From IMG/VR virus record IMGVR_UViG_3300020718_000007, positions 84,390 to 148,389 of that record: DNA of 64,000 nt; one strand, given 5' to 3'. Origin of the DNA: a virus (Duplodnaviria > Heunggongvirae > Uroviricota > Caudoviricetes). A model generated the notes under the pieces. The model was not told where the DNA came from, did not search any database, and saw only the letters and a list, made by a program, of their open reading frames with translations. Of the stretch, positions 10,286-57,165 are shown piece after piece (position 1 is the first letter of the stretch; each line of letters opens with the position of its first letter). The translations under genes and the position numbers were made by a program.

Positions 10286-11245
10286 ATGGAAAACAATTTT
10301 GACATCTTCAATTTAGACCATGAAGAATTTTTGAACCCGGTAGTTGAAAAAGGTGGTGCAGATGAGAACATCTACAAGCCTTACCCAGAGTTAGGTAAAG
10401 ACGGCGTCTATAAAGCGTTAATACGCTTCGTCCCTAACGTCTTCAATCTGAAAAAATCCAAAATCCACAAGTATTACGTTTGGTTAAAAGATCCAGTCGA
10501 CAACAAGACTTTTGTTGCTGATTGTCCAACAACTGTGGGTAAAAAGTCCATCCTGAAGGACATTTATTGGAAGTTGAAAAACTCTCCATCTGCAAAGGAT
10601 CAGGAATTATCAAAATCCTTCTCTCGTAAAGAAGATTATTATGCACTTATTCAGGTGATAGAAGACAAAAATCACCAGGAGCTGGAAAACAAGATTATGA
10701 TTTTCAAGTTCGGTAAGAAAGTGAATGATATGATCGAGCAGCAGATCAAGCCAGAATTTGGCAAACCTTGCAGCCCGTTTGATCCAATCAACGGTAAGAA
10801 TTTCTTCTTACATGTTAGGAAGGTAGGAGATTGGAACAACTATGACCTTTGCCAATTCGTTGGAGAAAGGGAACCAGTGAAAGTAAATGGTAAAGCCATC
10901 GAAAAAACTGAGGAAGGTAGCACAATGTTTACTGATTACCTGAAAACAGGACCAAGTGATCTTACTAAGTATGATTACAAGGAATGGTCTGACGAAGATA
11001 GGGAAAAGATAATGTCTATCATCCGTAATCTTGTACCAGATGGACGTGTCATCTCAGACATCCTATCATCTGCAGGTATGAGTAACAAAACATCTTATTC
11101 TTCTAAGGAAGAAGTATCCACCTCAAGGGAAGATATTTTATCTGGTGCAGGACTTGATGAAACCTCATTTGAAGAAGCAGCTCCTGCTAAGAAAGGTAAA
11201 ACTGCACCAACTTCAAGTTTGGAAGACCTTTACGCTGACCTTTAA
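10286..11245 (+). CDS. gp32: single-stranded DNA-binding protein, T4 gp32 family
   Basis: ALIRFVPN and KIMIFKFGKKVNDMI resemble gp32 AVIRFLPS and KVFKYRFGKKIW; acidic Ser/Asp/Glu C-terminal tail; GC content and codon usage differ from neighbouring genes. Confidence 0.8.
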   Translation: MENNFDIFNLDHEEFLNPVVEKGGADENIYKPYPELGKDGVYKALIRFVPNVFNLKKSKIHKYYVWLKDPVDNKTFVADCPTTVGKKSILKDIYWKLKNSPSAKDQELSKSFSRKEDYYALIQVIEDKNHQELENKIMIFKFGKKVNDMIEQQIKPEFGKPCSPFDPINGKNFFLHVRKVGDWNNYDLCQFVGEREPVKVNGKAIEKTEEGSTMFTDYLKTGPSDLTKYDYKEWSDEDREKIMSIIRNLVPDGRVISDILSSAGMSNKTSYSSKEEVSTSREDILSGAGLDETSFEEAAPAKKGKTAPTSSLEDLYADL

Positions 11246-11272
11246 TTGTTAACAATTTAAAAAGTATGGTGT

Positions 11273-12322
11273 ATGAGTTTCTCAACAGAGGATTTGAAGG
11301 GAATGGTCAAAAGAGTTCTCGAGAATGCCTTTCCAGGTAATACTCAGAAACAAAAAATCTACACAAGTAGTGGCCGTTTAAATTTCTCTTGTCCATATTG
11401 CGGAGACTCAGCGGAGGCACGAAAAAAGAGAGGCAATCTTTATATAGAGAGCCTCTCTTTTAAGTGCTATAATGGTGGGTGTAGTGTTTTCCGAGACCTA
11501 TATAGTTTCTTAAAAGATTTCGAACTGGGTAATATTATTAGTCCAGACCAAATATCCGAAATTATAGAGATTGGAAAAACAAAACGTAACACCAAAAAGA
11601 ACGCTGGGAGCATAGATGTTTTCTTATTGGAAATGTATAAAGAAATAATTCCAACAAGAGAACTACTCAAGAAGAAATTGGGTTTAATTGAACTTCCCCT
11701 AGGAGCAAAAGAATATCTAAAGAAAAGGTATCAAGAACCGGATGAAAGGTTTTTGTGGGAGCCTAGAAAGAAGTCAATGTTTTTATTGAATTTGACCGCT
11801 AATGGAGAACATGTACTTGGGCTCCAAATTAAAAATATGAACAAAGGTGCCGTTAACAAGTACTATACATATAGGCTTAGCGGTATTTATAAAAACTTAT
11901 TTAAGGAAAGAGATGCAGCCATCATAGAAAAGGCTAGTGAACTCGATCCAGTTTCTTGCGTCTTTGGATTTTCCACTTTAAATTTGGAGGATCCAATTAC
12001 TATTTTTGAAGGTCCCTTCGATAGTTTCCTTTATCGAAATTCGGTAGGACTGTGTTCTATCAATAATACATTTCCTTTTGATGTAATAGATAAAAGATAT
12101 TTCTTGGATAGTGATAGTTCAGGAAGGGAAAAATCTCAAAAACTATTAACAGATGGAGAAAGTGTTTTTCTGTGGAAGAAATTCTTACAAGAAAATGGAT
12201 TCCCGGAAAGGGATAAATGGGATTTAAATGATGTAGTAGTTTATGCTCATGCGAATGGGCTGAAAATTAAAAATCTGGAAGGTTATTTTTCAAAAGATAA
12301 ATGGGATATGATCCATGTATAA
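11273..12322 (+). CDS. gp61: DNA primase, T4 gp61 family
   Basis: Zn ribbon RLNFSCPYCGDSAEARKKRGNLY (T4: RFRCPVCGDSKTDQNKARGWYY) and toprim-like IFEGPFDSFLYRNSVGL (T4: VLEGPIDSLFIENGIA). Confidence 0.75.
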   Translation: MSFSTEDLKGMVKRVLENAFPGNTQKQKIYTSSGRLNFSCPYCGDSAEARKKRGNLYIESLSFKCYNGGCSVFRDLYSFLKDFELGNIISPDQISEIIEIGKTKRNTKKNAGSIDVFLLEMYKEIIPTRELLKKKLGLIELPLGAKEYLKKRYQEPDERFLWEPRKKSMFLLNLTANGEHVLGLQIKNMNKGAVNKYYTYRLSGIYKNLFKERDAAIIEKASELDPVSCVFGFSTLNLEDPITIFEGPFDSFLYRNSVGLCSINNTFPFDVIDKRYFLDSDSSGREKSQKLLTDGESVFLWKKFLQENGFPERDKWDLNDVVVYAHANGLKIKNLEGYFSKDKWDMIHV

Positions 12323-13636: not shown

Positions 13637-14407
13637 ATGACTATGAATATTTATAAAATTACTAATTTACTAAATGGTAAAATTTATATAGGACAGGAAA
13701 AAAGAGATAATCCAAAATATTTTGGTAGTGGTAATCTTATAAAAGAAGCTATTAAAAATGAAGGTATAGAAAATTTTCGGAAGGATATCATAGAAATTTG
13801 TAATAGCGTGAAAGATCTGAATGAACGAGAAATATTTTGGATAAAAGAATTAAAATCACAGAGCAAAGAAATTGGATATAATATAGCTCCTGGTGGATCC
13901 TTATTTGTTATGAACGAAGAAATTGCCAAAAAAGTTTCTGATACATTAAAAGGAAAATATGTTGGTAAAAAAGCATTTAGACATGGATTGAAATTATCTG
14001 ATGAACATAAAAGAGCTATTTCCCTTAAAAATAAGGGTCTAAGATTATCTGAAGTAACTAGAAGAAAACTATCACAATCACATAAAGGTAAAAAAGTTAC
14101 GGATCTAACTAAAGAAAAATTATCACTATCACATAGAGGAAAAAGATTAACAGAAAATCATAAAAGTAAGATAGGAATAGGACTTTTGGGGAACAAGCAT
14201 AGTGTAGAAACTAAAGAAAAAATAAAAAAATCTAATATAAATAAAAAACAGAAACATTCTGTCTCTCTCGATGCTATAAATATAAATACTAAAGAAATAT
14301 TATATTTTAATAATATTTCTCAAGCTTCGAGATTACTGGGTTGTACGAGATTTCGTATTAAAAATAATTTGGTTATTGGATGGAAAATAATACTGAATAA
14401 TATGTAA
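13637..14407 (+). mobile_element. GIY-YIG homing endonuclease gene (Seg/I-TevI-like) with NUMOD3-like repeats
   Basis: N-terminal IYKITNLLNGKIYIGQ ... ENFRK (GIY-YIG motif); repeated basic motifs KRAISLKNKG / RRKLSQSHKGK / KEKLSLSHRGK / HKSKIGIGLLGNKHS. Confidence 0.75.
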
Positions 14408-47835: not shown

Positions 47836-48057
47836 TAATTAAAAATGTTCTTAAAAGTCAAAAATAAATTTTTTTAGTCTGAAATCTTTTATTACATTTG
47901 CTGTATAAATAACAAATAATAAATTCTTAACGAGATATATATAACAACAATGAGACAGGTATTCTTTATATTCGATGTAGTCGTGGCAGAGGAAGTAGTT
48001 TTCTGGGCGGATGAAAATTGGACATAAGAATTCTGGACTTAATAACCTTTTATAAAA

Positions 48058-48086
48058 GGAGCTTCCAGATAACTGGAAGCTTTTTT
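48058..48086 (+). terminator. rho-independent terminator
   Basis: GAGCTTCCAG-ATAA-CTGGAAGC followed by TTTTTT. Confidence 0.5.
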
Positions 48087-48153: not shown

Positions 48154-48212
48154 TAAATATAACAATGAGTGATAACTCAAAGAAATGGTCTTTGAAATAT
48201 TGGATTTTAATT

Positions 48213-48285
48213 GGTGAGGTAGCTCAGTTGGTAGAGCGCAGCCCTGAAGAGGCTGGCGTCGGGGGTTCGAGTCCCTCCTTCACCA
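48213..48285 (+). tRNA. tRNA-Phe (anticodon GAA)
   Basis: manual cloverleaf: acceptor GGTGAGG/CTTCACC, D arm GCTC-AGTTGGTA-GAGC, anticodon stem CAGCC/GGCTG with loop CTGAAGA, T arm GGGGG-TTCGAGT-CCCTC. Confidence 0.8.
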
Positions 48286-48326
48286 CTCAAGACGGGAAAA
48301 GTACTGATACCCGCCGTGAACAAAGT

Positions 48327-48345
48327 CCTCGGTTCGTAACCGAGG
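48327..48345 (+). other. inter-tRNA spacer hairpin
   Basis: CCTCGGTT-CGT-AACCGAGG, 8-bp stem. Confidence 0.3.
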
Positions 48346-48351
48346 CAAACT

Positions 48352-48422
48352 ACGGGCGTAGTTCAATGGTAGAATATCGGTCTCCAAAACCGCAGATGGG
48401 GGTTCGAGTCCTTTCGCCCGTG
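48352..48422 (+). tRNA. tRNA-Trp (anticodon CCA)
   Basis: acceptor ACGGGCG/CGCCCGT, anticodon stem CGGT/ACCG with loop CTCCAAA, T arm GGGGG-TTCGAGT-CCTTT. Confidence 0.7.
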
Positions 48423-48430
48423 CCGCGAAA

Positions 48431-48470
48431 CTTTTGCACTTTTCTTGGATATATAGAATAAAACACTATT
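48431..48470 (+). repeat. direct repeat copy 1 (~40 nt, CTTTTGCACTTTTCTTGGATATATAGAATAAAACACTATT) upstream of the GIY-YIG gene
   Basis: near-identical copy at 49769-49809; contains an ATATATAgAATAAAA late-promoter-like core. Confidence 0.7.
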
Positions 48471-49109
48471 ATGCCAAGGGAAAGAAAAGTTTACAAATAT
48501 CATTTTATTTATAAAACTACAAACATTAAGAATGGTAAATTTTATATTGGAATGCACTCCACTGATAACTTAGATGATGGTTATTTAGGAAGTGGAGAAA
48601 AATTAAGAAGTTCTATAAGACATTATGGAAAAGAGAATCATCATAGGGAAATATTAGAATTTTTACCTAATAGGAAAGAATTATCTAATAGAGAAGAGGA
48701 AATAATAAATGAGAAATTTTTGGAAAATCCTCTTTGTTTAAATTTAGCAATTGGAGGCGAAGGATCAGGTGATAGCTTTAATTATGTTAATAGTATCTAT
48801 TGGAAATTACCAGAAAACAAAGAAAGAATTAGCAAATTAGTTAGTGAATTTAATATCAAAAATTGGAATAATTTAGATTCTAATAAAAAGAAGGAGAGAT
48901 TAAAAAATCTTAATTTTTCTAATAAAAGTCATACTAAAGAAGCTAAAGAACAGATAGGTAAGAGTAATTCAATAAAACAAAAAGGAGAGAAAAATTCCCA
49001 ATTTGGTAAAATTTGGATTACTAAAGAAAATGAAGAGAAGAAAATTATCCAATCAGAATTTGAAAATTATTCTAAGATAGGTTGGATAAGAGGAAGAAGG
49101 GGGAGGTAG
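48471..49109 (+). mobile_element. GIY-YIG homing endonuclease gene (copy A) inserted between tRNA genes
   Basis: KYHFIYKTTNIKNGKFYIGMHST...DGYLGSG; the stop codon (49107-49109) lies inside the 5' acceptor/D region of the following tRNA-like gene. Confidence 0.7.
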
Positions 49110-49185
49110 CTCAGTTGGTTAGAGCATGTAATGTTCCGGGATCCTGGACTTACGCCGGTCGCTGGTTCGAGTCCAGCCCTCCCCA
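49100..49185 (+). tRNA. 86-nt tRNA-like gene with canonical acceptor, D and T arms but an 18-nt segment in place of the 7-nt anticodon loop (isotype unassigned)
   Basis: acceptor GGGGAGG/CCTCCCC, D arm GCTC-AGTTGGTTA-GAGC, T arm GCTGG-TTCGAGT-CCAGC; anticodon stem TGTAA/TTACG encloses TGTTCCGGGATCCTGGAC, which folds into a further 4-bp helix with a 9-nt loop; no U33 register available. Confidence 0.4.
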
Positions 49186-49277
49186 CTAGGAAATTGAAGA
49201 TCCAGGTGAGCACTCTTGGTGTGTTTGAAAGAGTAACACAAAGCATGGTTTGCATAATGCGTCAGTTTCCTTAAATC

Positions 49278-49361
49278 GGTAATGTAGCTGAGTTGGTTGC
49301 GAAAGCATATAGCGCTTGGTCTGAAAAACCAGAGACGTCGGTTCGATCCCGATCATTACCA
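49278..49361 (+). tRNA. 84-nt tRNA-like gene with a Phe-type anticodon arm (GAA) and a ~12-nt GNRA-hairpin insertion in the D loop
   Basis: acceptor GGTAATG/CATTACC, anticodon stem TTGGT/ACCAG with loop CTGAAAA, T arm GTCGG-TTCGATC-CCGAT; the D region GCTG-AGTTGGTTGCGAAAGCATA-TAGC contains the mini-hairpin TGC-GAAA-GCA. Confidence 0.4.
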
Positions 49362-49366
49362 CATAT

Positions 49367-49439
49367 TCTCCTTTAGCTCAGTTGGTAGAGTGGAGGCACT
49401 ACAAGCCTTAGGTCGTTGGTTCGAGTCCAGCAGGGAGAA
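49367..49439 (+). tRNA. tRNA with anticodon UAC (Val-like) and noncanonical C33
   Basis: acceptor TCTCCTT/AGGGAGA, anticodon stem GAGGC/GCCTT with loop ACTACAA, T arm GTTGG-TTCGAGT-CCAGC. Confidence 0.5.
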
Positions 49440-49447
49440 CATTAAAA

Positions 49448-49522
49448 GCACCTTTAGCTCAGTTGGTTCAGAGCAACGCCCTTACAAGGCGTGGGTCACT
49501 GGTTCGAATCCAGTAAGGTGCA
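49448..49522 (+). tRNA. tRNA-Val (anticodon UAC)
   Basis: acceptor GCACCTT/AAGGTGC, D arm GCTC-AGTTGGTTCA-GAGC, anticodon stem ACGCC/GGCGT with loop CTTACAA, T arm ACTGG-TTCGAAT-CCAGT. Confidence 0.8.
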
Positions 49523-49528
49523 CAATAA

Positions 49529-49601
49529 GGTCCGGTGGACAAGCGAGCAAGTCGTTTCCCTTTCACGGAAAAGATCACGGGTTTGAATCCCGTCCGGATC
49601 A
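49529..49601 (+). tRNA. tRNA-Glu (anticodon UUC)
   Basis: acceptor GGTCCGG/CCGGATC, anticodon stem TTTCC/GGAAA with loop CTTTCAC, T arm ACGGG-TTTGAAT-CCCGT. Confidence 0.75.
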
Positions 49602-49608
49602 CAAATAA

Positions 49609-49680
49609 CACCCATTGGACAAGTGGTTAAGTCGTCTCCCTTTCACGGAGGAGACAGGGGTTCGAATCCCCTATGGGTGA
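49609..49680 (+). tRNA. tRNA-Glu (anticodon UUC), second divergent copy
   Basis: acceptor CACCCAT/ATGGGTG, anticodon stem TCTCC/GGAGG with loop CTTTCAC, T arm AGGGG-TTCGAAT-CCCCT. Confidence 0.7.
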
Positions 49681-49690
49681 CAATTAAAAA

Positions 49691-49762
49691 GGTACCGTAT
49701 TTCAGCGGTAGAATGGCAGCTTGTCAAGCTGCAGGTCACGGGCTCGAATCCCGTCGGTACCT
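49691..49762 (+). tRNA. tRNA-Asp (anticodon GUC)
   Basis: acceptor GGTACCG/CGGTACC, anticodon stem GCAGC/GCTGC with loop TTGTCAA, T arm ACGGG-CTCGAAT-CCCGT. Confidence 0.75.
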
Positions 49763-49768
49763 CGCTAC

Positions 49769-49809
49769 GATTTCGTACTTTTTCTTGGATATATAGAATA
49801 AAACACTAT
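49769..49809 (+). repeat. direct repeat copy 2 (GATTTCGTACTTTTTCTTGGATATATAGAATAAAACACTAT) upstream of the second GIY-YIG gene
   Basis: matches 48431-48470 with a few substitutions; the homology continues into both ORF starts (ATGCCAAG). Confidence 0.7.
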
Positions 49810-50466
49810 ATGCCAAGAAAAAAACACGAATATCATTATATTTACAAAACTACAAACATCCTAAATAACCGATATTATATAGGAATGCACTCTACCTCTA
49901 ATTTAGAGGATGGGTATTTAGGATCTGGTAGGAGAATAAGGGATTCAATAAATAAGTATGGTAAAGATAATCATATTAAGGAGATTTTGGAATTTTTACC
50001 AAATAGGAAGTTCTTAACTTTACGGGAGGAAGAAATAGTAAATAATGAATTATTAATTGATCCGTTATGTATGAACCTTAGAATAGGAGGAGATCCAGGA
50101 GCTACTGAATGGACGATAGAACAAAGAATATTGGGAGGTAAAAATGGTGGATTTAATACAGCTAAGAGTGAAAAGGAAAATCCGGTAATAGCTAAAAATC
50201 AATGGAATAATAGGTCTTTAATTATGAAAGAATGCCATCGTTTAGGTAAAATAAAATATGATACTTTTACTGGTAAAAAACATAACGAAGAATCTAAGAA
50301 ATTGATAGGAACTAAAAATTCAAATAAACAAAAAGGAATAAAAAATTCTCAATATGGAACAATTTGGATTAACAAAGATGGTATTGATAAAAAAGTAAAA
50401 AAAGAATACTTCTCTAATTATTTAGAAGAAGGATGGGTAAAAGGAAGAAATAAAAAGGTCTTGTAG
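49810..50466 (+). mobile_element. GIY-YIG homing endonuclease gene (copy B, paralog of 48471-49109)
   Basis: EYHYIYKTTNILNNRYYIGMHST...DGYLGSG; same N-terminal and C-terminal architecture as copy A; its stop codon (50464-50466) lies inside the 5' end of the following tRNA-Asp. Confidence 0.7.
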
Positions 50467-50531
50467 GGGAGTTGGCCGTCCCCGTCGCCCTGTCACGGCG
50501 AAGATCGCGGGTTCAAATCCCGTCGAGACCG
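50457..50531 (+). tRNA. tRNA-Asp (anticodon GUC), second divergent copy
   Basis: acceptor GGTCTTG/CGAGACC, D arm GGGG-AGTTGGCCGT-CCCC, anticodon stem TCGCC/GGCGA with loop CTGTCAC, T arm GCGGG-TTCAAAT-CCCGT. Confidence 0.7.
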
Positions 50532-50539
50532 CTAAATTT

Positions 50540-50610
50540 GGAGTGTTAGTTTAATTGGCTCGAATACCCTTGCGATCGGGGGAGATGAGGTTCAAGTCCT
50601 CTACATTCCG
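50540..50610 (+). tRNA. tRNA-like element (good acceptor and T arm; D and anticodon arms do not fold canonically; isotype unassigned)
   Basis: acceptor GGAGTGT/ACATTCC, T arm GAGG-TTCAAGT-CCTC; a possible loop TTGCGAT (GCG) lacks a proper stem. Confidence 0.3.
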
Positions 50611-50840
50611 CAAATAGAGTAGAAATGGCAAAGATTATTTTCCAAAAGAAAAAGGCATAGAAATTATTAGAAGATAAGAAATCTAGATTTTCTCTATTCG
50701 TTAAGAAGAATAACGAATTAAAGACTTTGGGAAGGGACTACATAGAAGGTGAAGTAGAAGAACTATATGTATTTTTCCAAAGCGGAATAGACCCAGAATG
50801 GGAGGGAAGGATGGGGACATTATTATAATAAGGTTAGTCA

Positions 50841-50872
50841 TCGCACGCGTGCGCTCACGCACACGCTCGCAC
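50841..50872 (+). repeat. GC-rich palindromic element TCGCACGCGTGCGCTCACGCACACGCTCGCAC
   Basis: 12-nt perfect palindrome CGCACGCGTGCG plus CGCAC-type repeats in an AT-rich intergenic region 26 nt upstream of the 50899 gene. Confidence 0.5.
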
Positions 50873-50898
50873 TTCTTATTATTATACAAAAATAAAAA

Positions 50899-51498
50899 AT
50901 GCCGGTAGGGAACTTCAAATGTAGTTATTGTAATAAACTATTCAATAATGGAAAATCCTTAGGAGGACATAAAACTTGGTGTGAAAGTAATCCTTTAAAT
51001 AAAGAAACCAGGAAAAAATTATCAGATATAGCAAAAAACCAAACTTGGACTAAAGAAAGTAGAGAAAAAGCATCTATAAAAAGAATTACTGTTATTGAAA
51101 AATCTGGTATAATTGGAGGATTCAAAGGTATAAAATGCTTTAATGTTAAATGTGAATCCACTGGAATTAATTATATAGTTAGAGGAACTTGGGAATTAAG
51201 AGTTGCAATGTTTTTGAATAGAAATGGTATAATTTGGGAAAATAAAAATAGAATCAGTTATAACGATAACGGAATACTCAGAAATTATTTACCTGATTTT
51301 TATTTACCTTTTGAGAAAATATATTTGGAAGTAAAAGGATACTTTAAGATTAAAGATAAAATTAAAATGAACTTAGTTAAGGAACAAACAAATTTAAATA
51401 TCTATATTATTGATAAGTATATTATATCAAAAATAGAAAATACTAATAATTTAGAATCCATATTAACTAAAAAATATCAGGGGAATGGGACTGCATAG
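50899..51498 (+). mobile_element. putative endonuclease gene with N-terminal C2H2-like Zn finger and C-terminal PD-(D/E)XK-like motif (paralogous C-terminus to the 35742-36992 gene)
   Basis: CSYCNKLFNNGKSLGGHKTWC zinc finger; LPDFYLPFEKIYLEVKGYF matches IDIYIIPDNKVIEVKSEF in the minus-strand gene. Confidence 0.4.
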
Positions 51499-52455: not shown

Positions 52456-52653
52456 ATGACAAAGGAAGAATTTCTCTCGCTTAAAAAAGGTGAGTCCGTA
52501 TTTTACTGCGGATCCTCCTATACTATTTTTGATTTACATCCAAGGTGTAATACCATTGTATTATTTCAGAAATGCTATAGGAGGAAGAAAGGATTTCACA
52601 ATATGGAGGTTAAATACACATTTTGTAATAGATTCGGTAGCTCAGTTGGTTAG
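52456..52653 (+). CDS. hypothetical small protein whose 3' end overlaps tRNA-Val
   Basis: 65-aa ORF; its last 23 nt overlap the tRNA 5' end. Confidence 0.3.
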   Translation: MTKEEFLSLKKGESVFYCGSSYTIFDLHPRCNTIVLFQKCYRRKKGFHNMEVKYTFCNRFGSSVG

Positions 52654-52704
52654 AGTATTACCATGACAAGGTAAGGGTCGGGAGTTCGAATCTCCCCTGG
52701 ATCA
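52631..52704 (+). tRNA. tRNA-Val (anticodon GAC)
   Basis: acceptor GATTCGG/CTGGATC (two G-U pairs), D arm GCTC-AGTTGGTTA-GAGT, anticodon stem TTACC/GGTAA with loop ATGACAA, T arm GGGAG-TTCGAAT-CTCCC. Confidence 0.7.
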
Positions 52705-52723
52705 CATTAATAAAACAATTTTT

Positions 52724-53054: not shown

Positions 53055-53525
53055 ATGTGCTTAAATCCATCTAATAAATATTGTCCTCTTTGTAAAAAAG
53101 ATCTGGATATATCAAATTTCAAAATAAGAAAACAATATGGTAAAAATCATTATAACTCATATTGTAATACTTGTAAGAGAGATAAATTAACCAATTACAA
53201 GAATAATAAAAGATCTACAAAGGAAGGAATTTTATATTACAATTTATCCAATTATAAAAATACAGATAAGAGGAGAGGATTTAACTTTGATTTAGATTTG
53301 AAATTTCTTATTGAACTTTGTAGTAAACCATGTATATATTGCGGGGATACAGAAAAAATAGGAGCGGATAGAATTGATAATAATAAAGGGCACACGAAAG
53401 ATAATGTAGTTCCCTGTTGTTTTAGTTGTAATAAAACTAGATTAGACCTTTATTCATTTGAGGAGATGCTAATTTTAGGAAAGGCAATACGGGAAATTAA
53501 ACTTAGAAGAAGATGTACTACTTAA
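53055..53525 (+). mobile_element. HNH homing endonuclease gene
   Basis: N-terminal CxxC...CxxC Zn ribbon; HNH core CIYCGDTEKIGADRIDNNKGHTKDNVVPCCFSCNK. Confidence 0.65.
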
Positions 53526-54510: not shown

Positions 54511-54583
54511 ACCCTGTTGGTGCAACGGCTAAACATAACGGCTTCCAACCCCGCAGATACAAGTTCGAATCTTGTACAGGGTT
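54511..54583 (+). tRNA. degenerate tRNA-like element (Gly-UCC-type loop CTTCCAA, weak anticodon and D stems)
   Basis: perfect acceptor ACCCTGT/ACAGGGT and T arm ACAAG-TTCGAAT-CTTGT; internal direct repeat AACGGCT x2; alternative pairing GTTGG/CCAAC. Confidence 0.35.
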
Positions 54584-54599
54584 CAATTATAAACAAACT

Positions 54600-54740
54600 A
54601 AAAGTCTACAGGAACTTTACCCTGTGTGCAGTAGAGATTAACTAGATAGGATTAACCAGGCTGGGCTTGATAAGCCGGCATTCCGGGTGCAAACCCCAGG
54701 CGTCCCCCGAAACATGATGCGGATGTAATGGTAATAGTTA
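54600..54740 (+). ncRNA. GC-rich structured non-coding region, candidate small stable RNA (analogous to the T4 species 1 and 2 RNAs in its tRNA region)
   Basis: no ORF; composition departs from the AT-rich background; nested helices CTGGG...CCCAG enclosing GCCGG-CATT-CCGGG. Confidence 0.25.
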
Positions 54741-54777
54741 ATCGGCAGTATTATTAAGTGAACTAAACTTTTTAATT

Positions 54778-56097: not shown

Positions 56098-57165
56098 ATG
56101 AACTTACGGGAACTAGAAAATAGCGGGCATATAATATTTGAAGGCGTAGTAGGATCTCAGGCTTATGGGATTTCTACTCCTACTTCAGATATTGATACTA
56201 AAGGAGTCTTCATACAACCAATTGAAGATATTCTTGGTTTTGGATATGTGGAGCAAGTAAGTGATGCAAAGAATGATAGGACATTTTTTGAAATTCGTAG
56301 GTTCTTACAATTGTTACAAACAGCTAATCCTACAATGCTTGAACTCCTGAACCTTCCTGATGATTGTATCCGATATAAACATCCAATTATGGATCTTGTA
56401 ATGGTACACAAGGAAAGGTTCATTACAAAAGTTTGCAGGAATAGTTACGGTGGATATGCAGTAGAGCAAATCAAAAAAGCCCGTGGGTTGAATAAGAAGA
56501 TAGTAGAGGTGGGTGAAAAAATACCAGTTCGCAAAACCGTATTAGATTTTTGTTTCACCATAGAAAATTCCAGAAGTATTCCTTTAATGTTATTTTTGGA
56601 TAATAAAGGTTTGGACGTAAATAAATGCGGGCTTGCTAAAATTCCACATGGACATGATTTATACTCTTTATACTATTCAGAAGAACATACTTATAGGGGT
56701 ATTGCAGATGAAGATTCTGACGAGGTTAGATTAACATCTATACCAAAAGGAGAAGTACCGATTGCTAGCTTGAACTTCAACAAGGATGCTTATAGCAAGC
56801 ATTGTAAACAATATAAGGAAGAAGTAGAATGGATTGAAAATCGTAATCCTGCTCGATTTGCAGACAATCTGCTACATGGCAAAGGTTATGATGGTAAAAA
56901 TCTTGCACACTGCCACAGATTACTGGACATGGCTACAGAGATTGGAGAAGGAAAGGGAGTAGTAGTAAGAAGGCCCAACCGAGAACAACTATTAAGCATC
57001 CGTAGGGGTGAATATGATTATGACCAGTTAGTAACAGAAGCAGAGGATAAGATAAAGAGAATGGATGAGATCTTTGAAAAATCGGAGCTTCCGGGTGCAT
57101 TAGATAGGGAATTCGTAGACGAGTTGCTTATCAAAATGAGGAAGCAATATTATGGATTAGGCTAA
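56098..57165 (+). CDS. Pol-beta-superfamily nucleotidyltransferase (NTP_transf_2/Cid1-like GS...SDxD motif)
   Basis: GVVGSQAYGISTPTSDIDTKGV matches the hG[GS]x9-13DhD NTase signature; 355 aa, much larger than MNT antitoxins. Confidence 0.5.
   Translation: MNLRELENSGHIIFEGVVGSQAYGISTPTSDIDTKGVFIQPIEDILGFGYVEQVSDAKNDRTFFEIRRFLQLLQTANPTMLELLNLPDDCIRYKHPIMDLVMVHKERFITKVCRNSYGGYAVEQIKKARGLNKKIVEVGEKIPVRKTVLDFCFTIENSRSIPLMLFLDNKGLDVNKCGLAKIPHGHDLYSLYYSEEHTYRGIADEDSDEVRLTSIPKGEVPIASLNFNKDAYSKHCKQYKEEVEWIENRNPARFADNLLHGKGYDGKNLAHCHRLLDMATEIGEGKGVVVRRPNREQLLSIRRGEYDYDQLVTEAEDKIKRMDEIFEKSELPGALDREFVDELLIKMRKQYYGLG

Follow-up and report, generated by a model that had tools for sequence, protein, structure and literature searches.

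We analysed a 64,000-nucleotide (nt) stretch of viral DNA (positions 84,390 to 148,389 of IMG/VR record IMGVR_UViG_3300020718_000007; henceforth the window), in which a cluster of transfer RNA (tRNA) genes on the plus strand (48200-50620; detected with ARAGORN and confirmed with Rfam) is interrupted by two plus-strand open reading frames (ORFs), gene A (48471-49109, 212 amino acids) and gene B (49810-50466, 218 amino acids). The two are very probably separately inserted, free-standing cassettes encoding GIY-YIG homing endonucleases of the SegB family, each filling one inter-tRNA spacer of a T4-like giant phage.

Two SegB-family genes and their empty sites

Both proteins matched PHROG 314 (“homing endonuclease”; expectation value (E) 9e-33 for A and 1.5e-29 for B) as well as each other (45% identity, E 1e-61). 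Their best annotated relatives among GenBank phages were T-even homing endonucleases, segB among them, with proteins aligning end to end: in a tblastn search, the annotated segB of Yersinia phage PST and the orthologous ORF of phage T6 were equally similar, both at 37% identity across 95% of the query (E 3e-25). A near-identity search of GenBank phages returned nothing beyond a 49-nt tRNA-Phe match. An alignment of 30 family members showed the motifs (F/Y)IYK at positions 12-15 and (F/Y)YIGMHS at 24-30, invariant E75 and N91, at least 90% conservation of Y14, Y25 and G27, and a conserved C-terminus, GW.(K/R)GR; all 21 invariant positions are present in A and B. Pfam profiles recognised part of these 30 members at E < 1e-3 (PF01541 in 14, PF19835 in 11 and NUMOD3 in 9). 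While a sequence-profile search of the PDB gave no match at E <= 0.01, the AlphaFold model (predicted local distance difference test score 87.3, with residues 10-90 above 90) had the I-TevI catalytic domain (1MK0/1LN0) as its top three PDB matches, with probability 1.00, a target TM-score of 0.63 and 23-26% identity, and the next structure followed at E > 1. Judged by sequence and modelled fold, A and B belong to the T4/T6 SegB family of GIY-YIG homing endonucleases, with predicted cleavage activity. The profile match, the I-TevI-like model and the T-even relatives all agree with an initial annotation of this DNA, made from the letters alone, which had read the pair as GIY-YIG homing endonuclease genes within a tRNA cluster.

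The flanks of the two genes differ. Gene A lies between tRNA-Trp(CCA) (48352-48424; ARAGORN, Rfam 62.7 bits) and a tRNA-like gene (49100-49186), and gene B between two copies of tRNA-Asp(GTC), Asp1 (49691-49763) and Asp2 (50457-50532), all of them on the plus strand. In both cassettes the distance from the end of the upstream tRNA (Trp for A, Asp1 for B) to the ATG is exactly 46 nt, a regularity that the initial annotation had missed. A strong terminator-like hairpin is found just 5' of the tRNA cluster (48055-48086).

Identical copies of protein A occur on a 473,921-bp contig in ENA, ERZ27271905 k141_26427, and on several Joint Genome Institute (JGI) and Logan contigs, and other matches in the window include topoisomerase II, helicase and tail fibre. 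By these sequences the host is an uncultured T4-like giant phage of ~474 kb, known from metagenome assemblies alone. Together with two syntenic relatives, the window (A and B present, in the orders Trp-A-tRNA-like and Asp1-B-Asp2) forms a natural series of three genomes that carry both, one or neither cassette, which gives exact predicted homing sites. The first relative, a 401,578-bp contig (L012) with ~80% nucleotide identity and the same gene order, carries an orthologue of A (72% amino-acid identity) and lacks both B and Asp2; its Asp/Ser spacer is occupied by a small PD-(D/E)xK-like ORF (~11190-11532). The second, a 56,974-bp JGI contig (L097), was found by an exact scan of JGI metagenomes with the pattern of an odd Phe/Tyr tRNA described below; it has the tRNA order of the window and neither endonuclease gene. 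Its empty sites read tRNA-Trp, 8 nt (TATTTATA at the junction) and the tRNA-like gene in one case, and Asp1, 7 nt (ACTAAAA) and Asp2 in the other, its Asp2 being 100% identical to that of the window. Relative to this contig, cassette B is a ~684-bp insertion between ...CCTC(G/A)CTA and AAAAGGTCTTG. The tRNAs shared between the window and L012 (Phe, Trp, tRNA-like, odd Phe/Tyr, Val1 and Ser) are 91-100% identical, and the stretch around B has been replaced in L012, as would be expected if flanking markers had been co-converted. Exact scans of IMG/VR for the anticodon arm of the tRNA-like gene and for the odd Phe/Tyr tRNA gave no match.

The initial annotation had further described the genes as paralogous and a repeat upstream of them as duplicated. 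The homology of both stands. Duplication in place, for example by a T6-type, SegB-driven amplification of a tRNA-plus-endonuclease unit with the repeat as its surviving trace, does not fare as well. Such tandem amplification has been documented for a 718-bp unit of tRNA-Tyr and segB (PMC13096335), and one may point to the shared layout of tRNA, 46 nt and ATG, to the almost identical 5' modules and to the doubled isoacceptors of the cluster (Val, Glu, Asp and Trp). However, a layout of this kind is a family-wide trait, the flanks of the two genes are unlike, and several proteins on other contigs exceed the 45% identity between A and B, matching A at 49-50% (apart from the 72% of the L012 orthologue) and B at up to 52-53%. 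Moreover, Asp1 and Asp2 are only 64% identical and stand next to each other without an endonuclease gene in L097, meaning that the Asp pair predates B. The closer relatives on other contigs and the two independent empty sites thus argue for two insertions of diverged family members, with recent duplication in place being highly improbable.

We used a family profile to fetch 80 loci from IMG/VR and searched these with ARAGORN. We found tRNAs at 72 loci and a same-strand upstream tRNA at 64, with the distance from the tRNA end to the ATG lying between 19 and 75 nt in 59 of the latter (38-60 nt in 50). By contrast, the distance to a downstream tRNA varied from -37 to ~2,000 nt; it was 15 nt or less in 19 of 63 cases, and 5 of the 63 overlapped, mostly by 2 nt. 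In this family the 5' junction is hence tied to the 3' end of a tRNA, whatever its isotype; the 3' junction has no such fixed position. This pattern fits the published properties of SegB, which recognises GGTTCRANTCC (the T-psi-C motif) and cuts near the tRNA 3' end (PMC2330249), and SegB homologues have been reported to co-localise significantly with tRNAs (PMC13096335). A cassette junction directly after the tRNA 3' end is compatible with SegB-like cleavage at the T-arm and 3' end, which, by analogy, make up the likely homing site of A in tRNA-Trp.

We propose a mechanism in four steps, of which the first is drawn from direct sequence comparison and the other three, set out below, we infer. 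In the first step, the endonuclease would, like T4/T6 SegB, cleave a gene-less relative within the conserved T-arm and 3' end of a tRNA gene or immediately behind them, and repair from a gene-carrying genome would copy the cassette, sometimes with neighbouring tRNAs, into the spacer. The presence and absence of the cassettes is observed, and homing would account for it. That the genes are mobile cassettes at tRNA junctions had been proposed in the initial annotation, together with a search of related clusters for empty sites; the proposal is borne out by relatives that lack one gene (B in L012) or both (L097) at exactly these junctions, and by a family that sits just 3' of tRNAs.

Two further ideas were rejected. 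Asp1 of the window has a C at the universally conserved T54 of the T-loop (GGCTCGAATCC), where Asp1 of L097 (GGTTCGAATCC) and of L012 have T (GGTTCGA). A protective T-loop change in the adjacent tRNA is nevertheless not a family trait, as the canonical GGTTCRANNC was found in 41 of 58 adjacent tRNAs and in 424 of 600 others (Fisher p = 1.0). Nor did we find a preference for inserting into (or creating) pairs of tRNAs for the same amino acid (9 of 34 vs. a background of 56 of 322; p = 0.24).

Nuclease-type ORFs are also found elsewhere in the tRNA region (50899-51498 and 53055-53525); one ORF of this region joins a C2H2 zinc finger to a phage endonuclease I-like domain, and another is endonuclease VII/HNH-like. 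The tRNA cluster appears to be a common insertion site for mobile nucleases in general. Just 5' of the zinc-finger nuclease ORF, this otherwise AT-rich genome has a GC-rich element (TCATCGCACGCGTGCGCTCACGCACACGCTCGCAC; 50838-50875) that is identical in L012.

A predicted hairpin over the start codons

A pattern search of the window located a 31-nt repeat upstream of each gene (48439-48469 for A and 49779-49809 for B, both on the plus strand), with the sequence (C/T)TTTTCTTGGATATATAGAATAAAACACTAT and a single mismatch between the copies, i.e., 30 of 31 positions matching. These two copies are the only ones in the 64 kb; none would be expected by chance, and none of 100 shuffled sequences contained any match. 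The identity extends, with a 1-nt indel, into ATGCCAAG, which codes for the family-conserved N-terminus MPR(K/E). The initial annotation had noticed this near-identical block running into the starts of diverged proteins, and suggested aligning the cassettes with their flanks; the contrast between 30 of 31 nucleotides and 45% amino-acid identity confirms the former, and the shuffles place the homology of the repeats beyond chance. An exact scan of IMG/VR for TTCTTGGATATATAGAATAAAA returned only an unrelated coding-region match on an AT-rich contig without tRNAs (L011).

When the RNA of a read-through transcript was folded from the upstream tRNA end to position +35, a stable hairpin was predicted over each start codon. 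Hairpin A (48428-48492, plus strand) has a folding free energy of -16.0 kcal/mol (z-score -3.2) and hairpin B (49769-49834, plus strand) one of -21.7 kcal/mol (z-score -7.8), and in neither case was any of 200 shuffled sequences as stable. In hairpin A, a 5' arm formed by AACTTTTG...CTTTTCTTGG pairs with a 3' arm formed by CCAAGGGAA...AAAAGTTT, which corresponds to codons 2-7, so that the start codon lies within the structure; AACTTTTG engages in CAAAAGTT-type pairing, and the architecture is that of hairpin B. In hairpin B, ATTTCGT pairs with ACGAAT (codons 6-8), TTTTTCTTGG with CCAAGAAAAA (codons 2-5) and ATATATAG with CTATATG, which includes the AUG. The outer stems differ in sequence between the two cassettes and are paired in both (CTTTTG/AAAAG in A vs. 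TTTCGT/ACGAA in B). No Shine-Dalgarno sequence is present at A or B; it is the AUG and codons 2-7 that the hairpin engages. Ranked by stability among 67 ORF starts in the window, the start of A came fifth and that of B third, the two more stable regions than B's being a terminator and a mis-called start.

The same arrangement was found across the family. Folding of 61 unique cassettes, with shuffles, gave a median free energy of -20.6 kcal/mol and a median z-score of -4.1, and in 50 of the 61 an upstream arm paired with 8 or more of the 22 nt surrounding the ATG. RNA beginning at position -12, by contrast, was nearly unstructured (family median -1.0 kcal/mol; 0.0 kcal/mol for both A and B). 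The arm sequences are unrelated between many loci (e.g., L049, with arms ATTTTGTACTTCCGTTTG...AAACGGAAGTACAAAATG, L085 and gene B of the window), and it is by this sequence-by-sequence folding with shuffles that the covariation of the hairpin was shown. A family-wide motif, TTTTGTAC, lies ~10 nt after the tRNA and forms the outer 5' arm; its partner, ACAAAA(G), is found in codons 5-7 or just before the AUG. On these folding predictions, the repeat appears to be conserved mainly as the 5' arm and loop of an RNA hairpin that sequesters the start codon, an element that the initial annotation had not seen.

The inner 5' arm and loop of the hairpin also contain a promoter-like box, GATATATAGAATAAAA (plus strand; 48448-48463 in A and 49788-49803 in B), which resembles the T4 late promoter TATAAATA; the hairpins of relatives carry an A/T box of the form ATATTTATAA, GATAAATAA or TATAAATAA. 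The motif GATATATA occurs in the window 11 times on the plus strand and once on the minus strand, and 9 of the 11 plus-strand copies sit 12-35 nt before an ORF start (positions include 2831, 6508, 15950, 23186, 35229, 45299, 47934, 48448 and 49788). One of these copies precedes a tail-fibre-like gene at 2852. Even with both endonuclease genes left out, ATATATA was the most enriched 7-mer at positions -40 to -5 of 65 ORFs (p = 2.6e-7) and GATATAT the third most enriched (p = 1e-5). A scan of the window for a sigma-70-type consensus found 13 sites against 11.7 expected, none of them coinciding with the repeat. By its sequence context, ATATATA/GATATATA is probably the core of this phage's late-type promoter, and the box inside the hairpin may be a functional late promoter, which would yield RNA without the 5' arm. 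The late-promoter-like core reported in the initial annotation thereby gains support from its enrichment upstream of other genes in the window.

Could the repeat act on the DNA level only, as a promoter or as an operator bound by the endonuclease, with the RNA hairpin being incidental? The box does match the motif that is most enriched upstream of other genes, and I-TevI is a precedent for autorepression, acting on its own late promoter at an operator similar to its homing site (PMC2988022). A promoter alone, however, leaves unexplained why CTTTTCTTGG and CACTAT are conserved, whose hairpin partners are CCAAGAAAAG and ATATAG, why the outer stems of A and B differ in a compensating manner, and why a start-sequestering hairpin is kept in 50 of 61 members with unrelated arms. 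The module also shows no resemblance by eye to the presumptive homing sites in L097. We therefore regard a role in DNA only as improbable. Under the hairpin reading, pairing, the promoter box and the conserved N-terminal codons would between them constrain nearly every base of the 31-nt block; intragenomic gene conversion may be a further cause of the near-identity of the two copies.

These features suggest the second and third steps of the mechanism. According to the folding predictions, each cassette carries its own 5' control module: early in infection, on read-through RNA from a tRNA-cluster promoter, the leader would pair with the start codon and codons 2-7, leaving the gene untranslated and the downstream tRNA free to fold undisturbed. 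Late in infection, as the promoter-like motif hints, transcripts starting from GATATATAGAATAAAA within the hairpin would lack the 5' arm and, being unstructured, could be translated. The benefit of the hairpin may be that ribosomes are kept out of the downstream tRNA on early transcripts, for which I-TevI offers a precedent.

The window encodes a third GIY-YIG homing endonuclease (13637-14407; 256 amino acids; PHROG 314, E 7.5e-42), whose gene adjoins a helicase gene outside the tRNA cluster and lacks the 5' hairpin module; it shares ~40% identity with A over the catalytic domain.

Overlap with the downstream tRNA genes

Both genes run into the tRNA gene that follows them. ARAGORN and Rfam agree in placing the downstream tRNA starts at 49100 and 50457 (Rfam 50.2 and 58.7 bits, respectively, against a gathering score of 29), and the TAG stop codons of A (49107-49109) and B (50464-50466) correspond to tRNA nucleotides 8-10 of the tRNA-like gene and of Asp2, giving a 10-nt overlap each. 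This confirms the earlier observation that the stop codons lie about 10 nt inside the downstream tRNA genes. The conserved protein end GW.(K/R)GR is separated from the tRNA by 2 nt in A and by 8 nt in B, and neither ORF has a stop codon of its own. Similar arrangements were found nearby. In the L012 orthologue of A, the loss of one G has produced a frameshifted tail that stops at the D-loop TAG (GGTTAG), overlapping the tRNA-like gene by 23 nt; the same D-loop stop is used by a 65-amino-acid ORF of the window (52456-52653), which enters tRNA-Val(GAC) (52631-52705), likewise by 23 nt. The unrelated PD-(D/E)xK-like ORF of L012 also ends on T8-A9-G10, in this case of tRNA-Ser.

The overlap is most likely a by-product of tight packing. 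One could alternatively see in it a selected device by which a given RNA molecule would serve either tRNA 5' maturation or endonuclease translation, never both: it is seen for both A and B, the small nuclease ORF of L012 and the 65-amino-acid ORF of the window show it as well, and the messenger RNA (mRNA) of T4 segB is reportedly cut between its last codon and its stop codon during tRNA-Arg maturation (PMC2330249). Against this, only 5 of the 63 downstream tRNAs in the family overlap, mostly by 2 nt, others lying up to 2 kb away, and the exact overlap is not kept in the L012 orthologue, which uses another TAG after a 1-nt change. In addition, most tRNAs of the cluster have TAG at nucleotides 8-10, so that an ORF running in would stop there with a chance of ~1/3, and two would do so with a chance of ~1/9; because this TAG is so common, its double use is not statistically remarkable. 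Selection for the overlap hence seems rather unlikely.

Still more speculative, and in our view less likely again, is a two-way switch, in which the hairpin would bar ribosomes early, allowing the tRNA to fold and ribonuclease P to cut 7 nt before the TAG, with the resulting stop-less mRNA left to ribosome rescue and decay, while late in infection ribosomes would enter the acceptor/D stem and block maturation of that tRNA copy; the tRNA-like RNA could then be kept purely as a processing handle. Whichever the origin of the overlap, the fourth step of our mechanism is that ribonuclease P cleavage at 49099/49100 and 50456/50457 would leave the endonuclease mRNA without a stop codon.

In the tRNA-like gene that follows A, the acceptor, D and T arms are intact; the anticodon arm, with an insertion of 11 nt and no 7-nt loop, forms an extended hairpin of stem, internal loop, stem and GATC loop. 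In L012 (10650-10736) the gene shows three compensatory pair changes, which suggests that the extension of the anticodon arm is under selection, and in L097 (1541-1427, minus strand) it has a ~55-nt insertion at the same site and was missed by ARAGORN. It is possibly a processing handle, a tRNA with an unusual intron or a decaying tRNA.

Other elements of the cluster and its vicinity are also of note. The odd Phe/Tyr tRNA (85 nt; 49278-49362) is called Tyr(ATA) with a long variable arm by ARAGORN and Phe(GAA) with a 12-nt D-loop insertion by Rfam; it is 100% identical in L012 and has an exact 33-nt match in L097. Two inter-tRNA spacers (48287-48351, 65 nt; 49187-49277, 91 nt) are almost identical in L012, compared with ~80% for protein-coding DNA, and both fold into a closed structure (z-score about -2); L097 lacks the 65-nt spacer. 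The two spacers may be small stable RNAs comparable to the species 1 and 2 RNAs of T4. A nucleotidyltransferase ORF lies beside the tRNA cluster (56098-57165; PHROG 388, E 4e-51), and its L012 orthologue has the Pfam domain RlaP. Finally, a non-coding stretch of higher guanine-plus-cytosine content (54600-54770), without an Rfam match, separates tRNA-Trp (54511-54584) from a small ORF.

Several observations weigh against our interpretation as a whole. At the level of the proteins, A scored 20.5 bits against the Pfam GIY-YIG family (PF01541), below the curated cut-off of 22.6, and was likewise just below the threshold for SegE_GIY-YIG, while B had weak matches to SegE_GIY-YIG and NUMOD3 alone (E > 0.04). 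As regards the hairpin, a MAFFT alignment of 25 of the 5' modules was out of register in the arms, and covariation was shown by folding one sequence at a time. The total of GATATATA in the window is not above chance (12 vs. 7.9 expected), its bias lying in strand and position only, and we dropped it as an over-represented word. Lastly, the leader of the L012 orthologue of A is shorter by 11 nt (AATAAAACACT) in the stretch from the box to the ATG (L012 9990-10003), and this deletion, taken together with the missing stop codons of A and B, could be an early sign of decay. The hairpin of this orthologue still forms (-16.9 kcal/mol); with just 3 nt left between box and start codon, late expression may have been lost in the L012 phage.

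Such signs raise the question of whether A and B are decaying or domesticated remnants, either inactive or kept for amplifying or exchanging tRNA genes against tRNA-targeting host defences. Neither ORF retains a stop codon of its own, and a single base appears to separate the tail of B (GGAAGAAATAAAAAG) from the family-typical ending GRK-TAA; the L012 orthologue combines its deleted leader with the frameshifted tail, the cluster contains redundant tRNAs, and T6 SegB has a documented adaptive role in the amplification of tRNA-Tyr. On the other hand, both ORFs are intact and full length, retain all invariant family positions together with an intact control module, and are found as identical copies in several independent metagenome assemblies, and their presence and absence among close relatives has the look of ongoing mobility. 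We consider the remnant scenario possible and on balance unlikely, and keep to that of two inserted homing endonuclease cassettes.

Relation to SegB and to late-translation hairpins

The system is one that is already known, i.e., a SegB-type endonuclease combined with a late-translation hairpin of the T4 kind, and the genes of the window are further members of it. They show that the tRNA clusters invaded by SegB-type endonucleases extend far outside the T-even phages, and that the genes bring along what appears to be a portable module for translation late only. The 61 cassettes, in which the hairpin is kept and its sequence changed, provide material on how the expression of selfish genes is adapted to new hosts that do not use Shine-Dalgarno sequences. 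For annotation, the overlaps mean that ORFs in phage tRNA clusters may legitimately end within the next tRNA.

Like their relatives in T4 and T6, A and B have an N-terminal GIY-YIG domain and a GW.(K/R)GR C-terminus and align over 95% of their length at ~37% identity. They likewise stand between two same-strand tRNA genes and extend to the 5' end of the second; the neighbours of segB in the T4-type phage PST are tRNA-Tyr and tRNA-Arg, with 5 nt left between the end of the gene and tRNA-Arg. T4 segB has a hairpin over its start (PMC2330249), as is predicted here for the start region; in both systems the 3' end of the mRNA is exposed to tRNA maturation, and in both the gene is carried by some related phages only. 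The differences are that the window has two diverged copies in one cluster, that the ORFs enter the tRNA by 10 nt rather than stopping before it, that the AUG and codons 2-7 are paired where there is no Shine-Dalgarno sequence to be hidden, that the box GATATATAGAATAAAA is a variant of this phage's own upstream motif, and that the host is an uncultured phage with a genome of ~474 kb from metagenome assemblies.

The placement of a late promoter within a hairpin, which on early read-through RNA masks the translation start, has been described for I-TevI, I-TevII, I-TevIII, segB and mobE of Aeh1, and in the case of I-TevI the delay in translation protects the folding of the surrounding intron (PMC2988022). 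The predicted control of A and B would resemble that of I-TevI in that early read-through RNA folds and hides the start, whereas RNA begun at the internal promoter is free of the 5' arm and can be translated, and in that ribosomes are kept off a structured RNA, which there is the intron and here would be the downstream tRNA; the modelled catalytic domain also shares its fold with I-TevI. Unlike I-TevI, the cassettes are free-standing and not intron-encoded, and the RNA at risk is a tRNA rather than a group I intron. Other homing-type endonuclease ORFs in a phage tRNA cluster occupy the same niche, with transcript processing having been proposed to lower their expression, and it is by this niche alone that we liken them to A and B.

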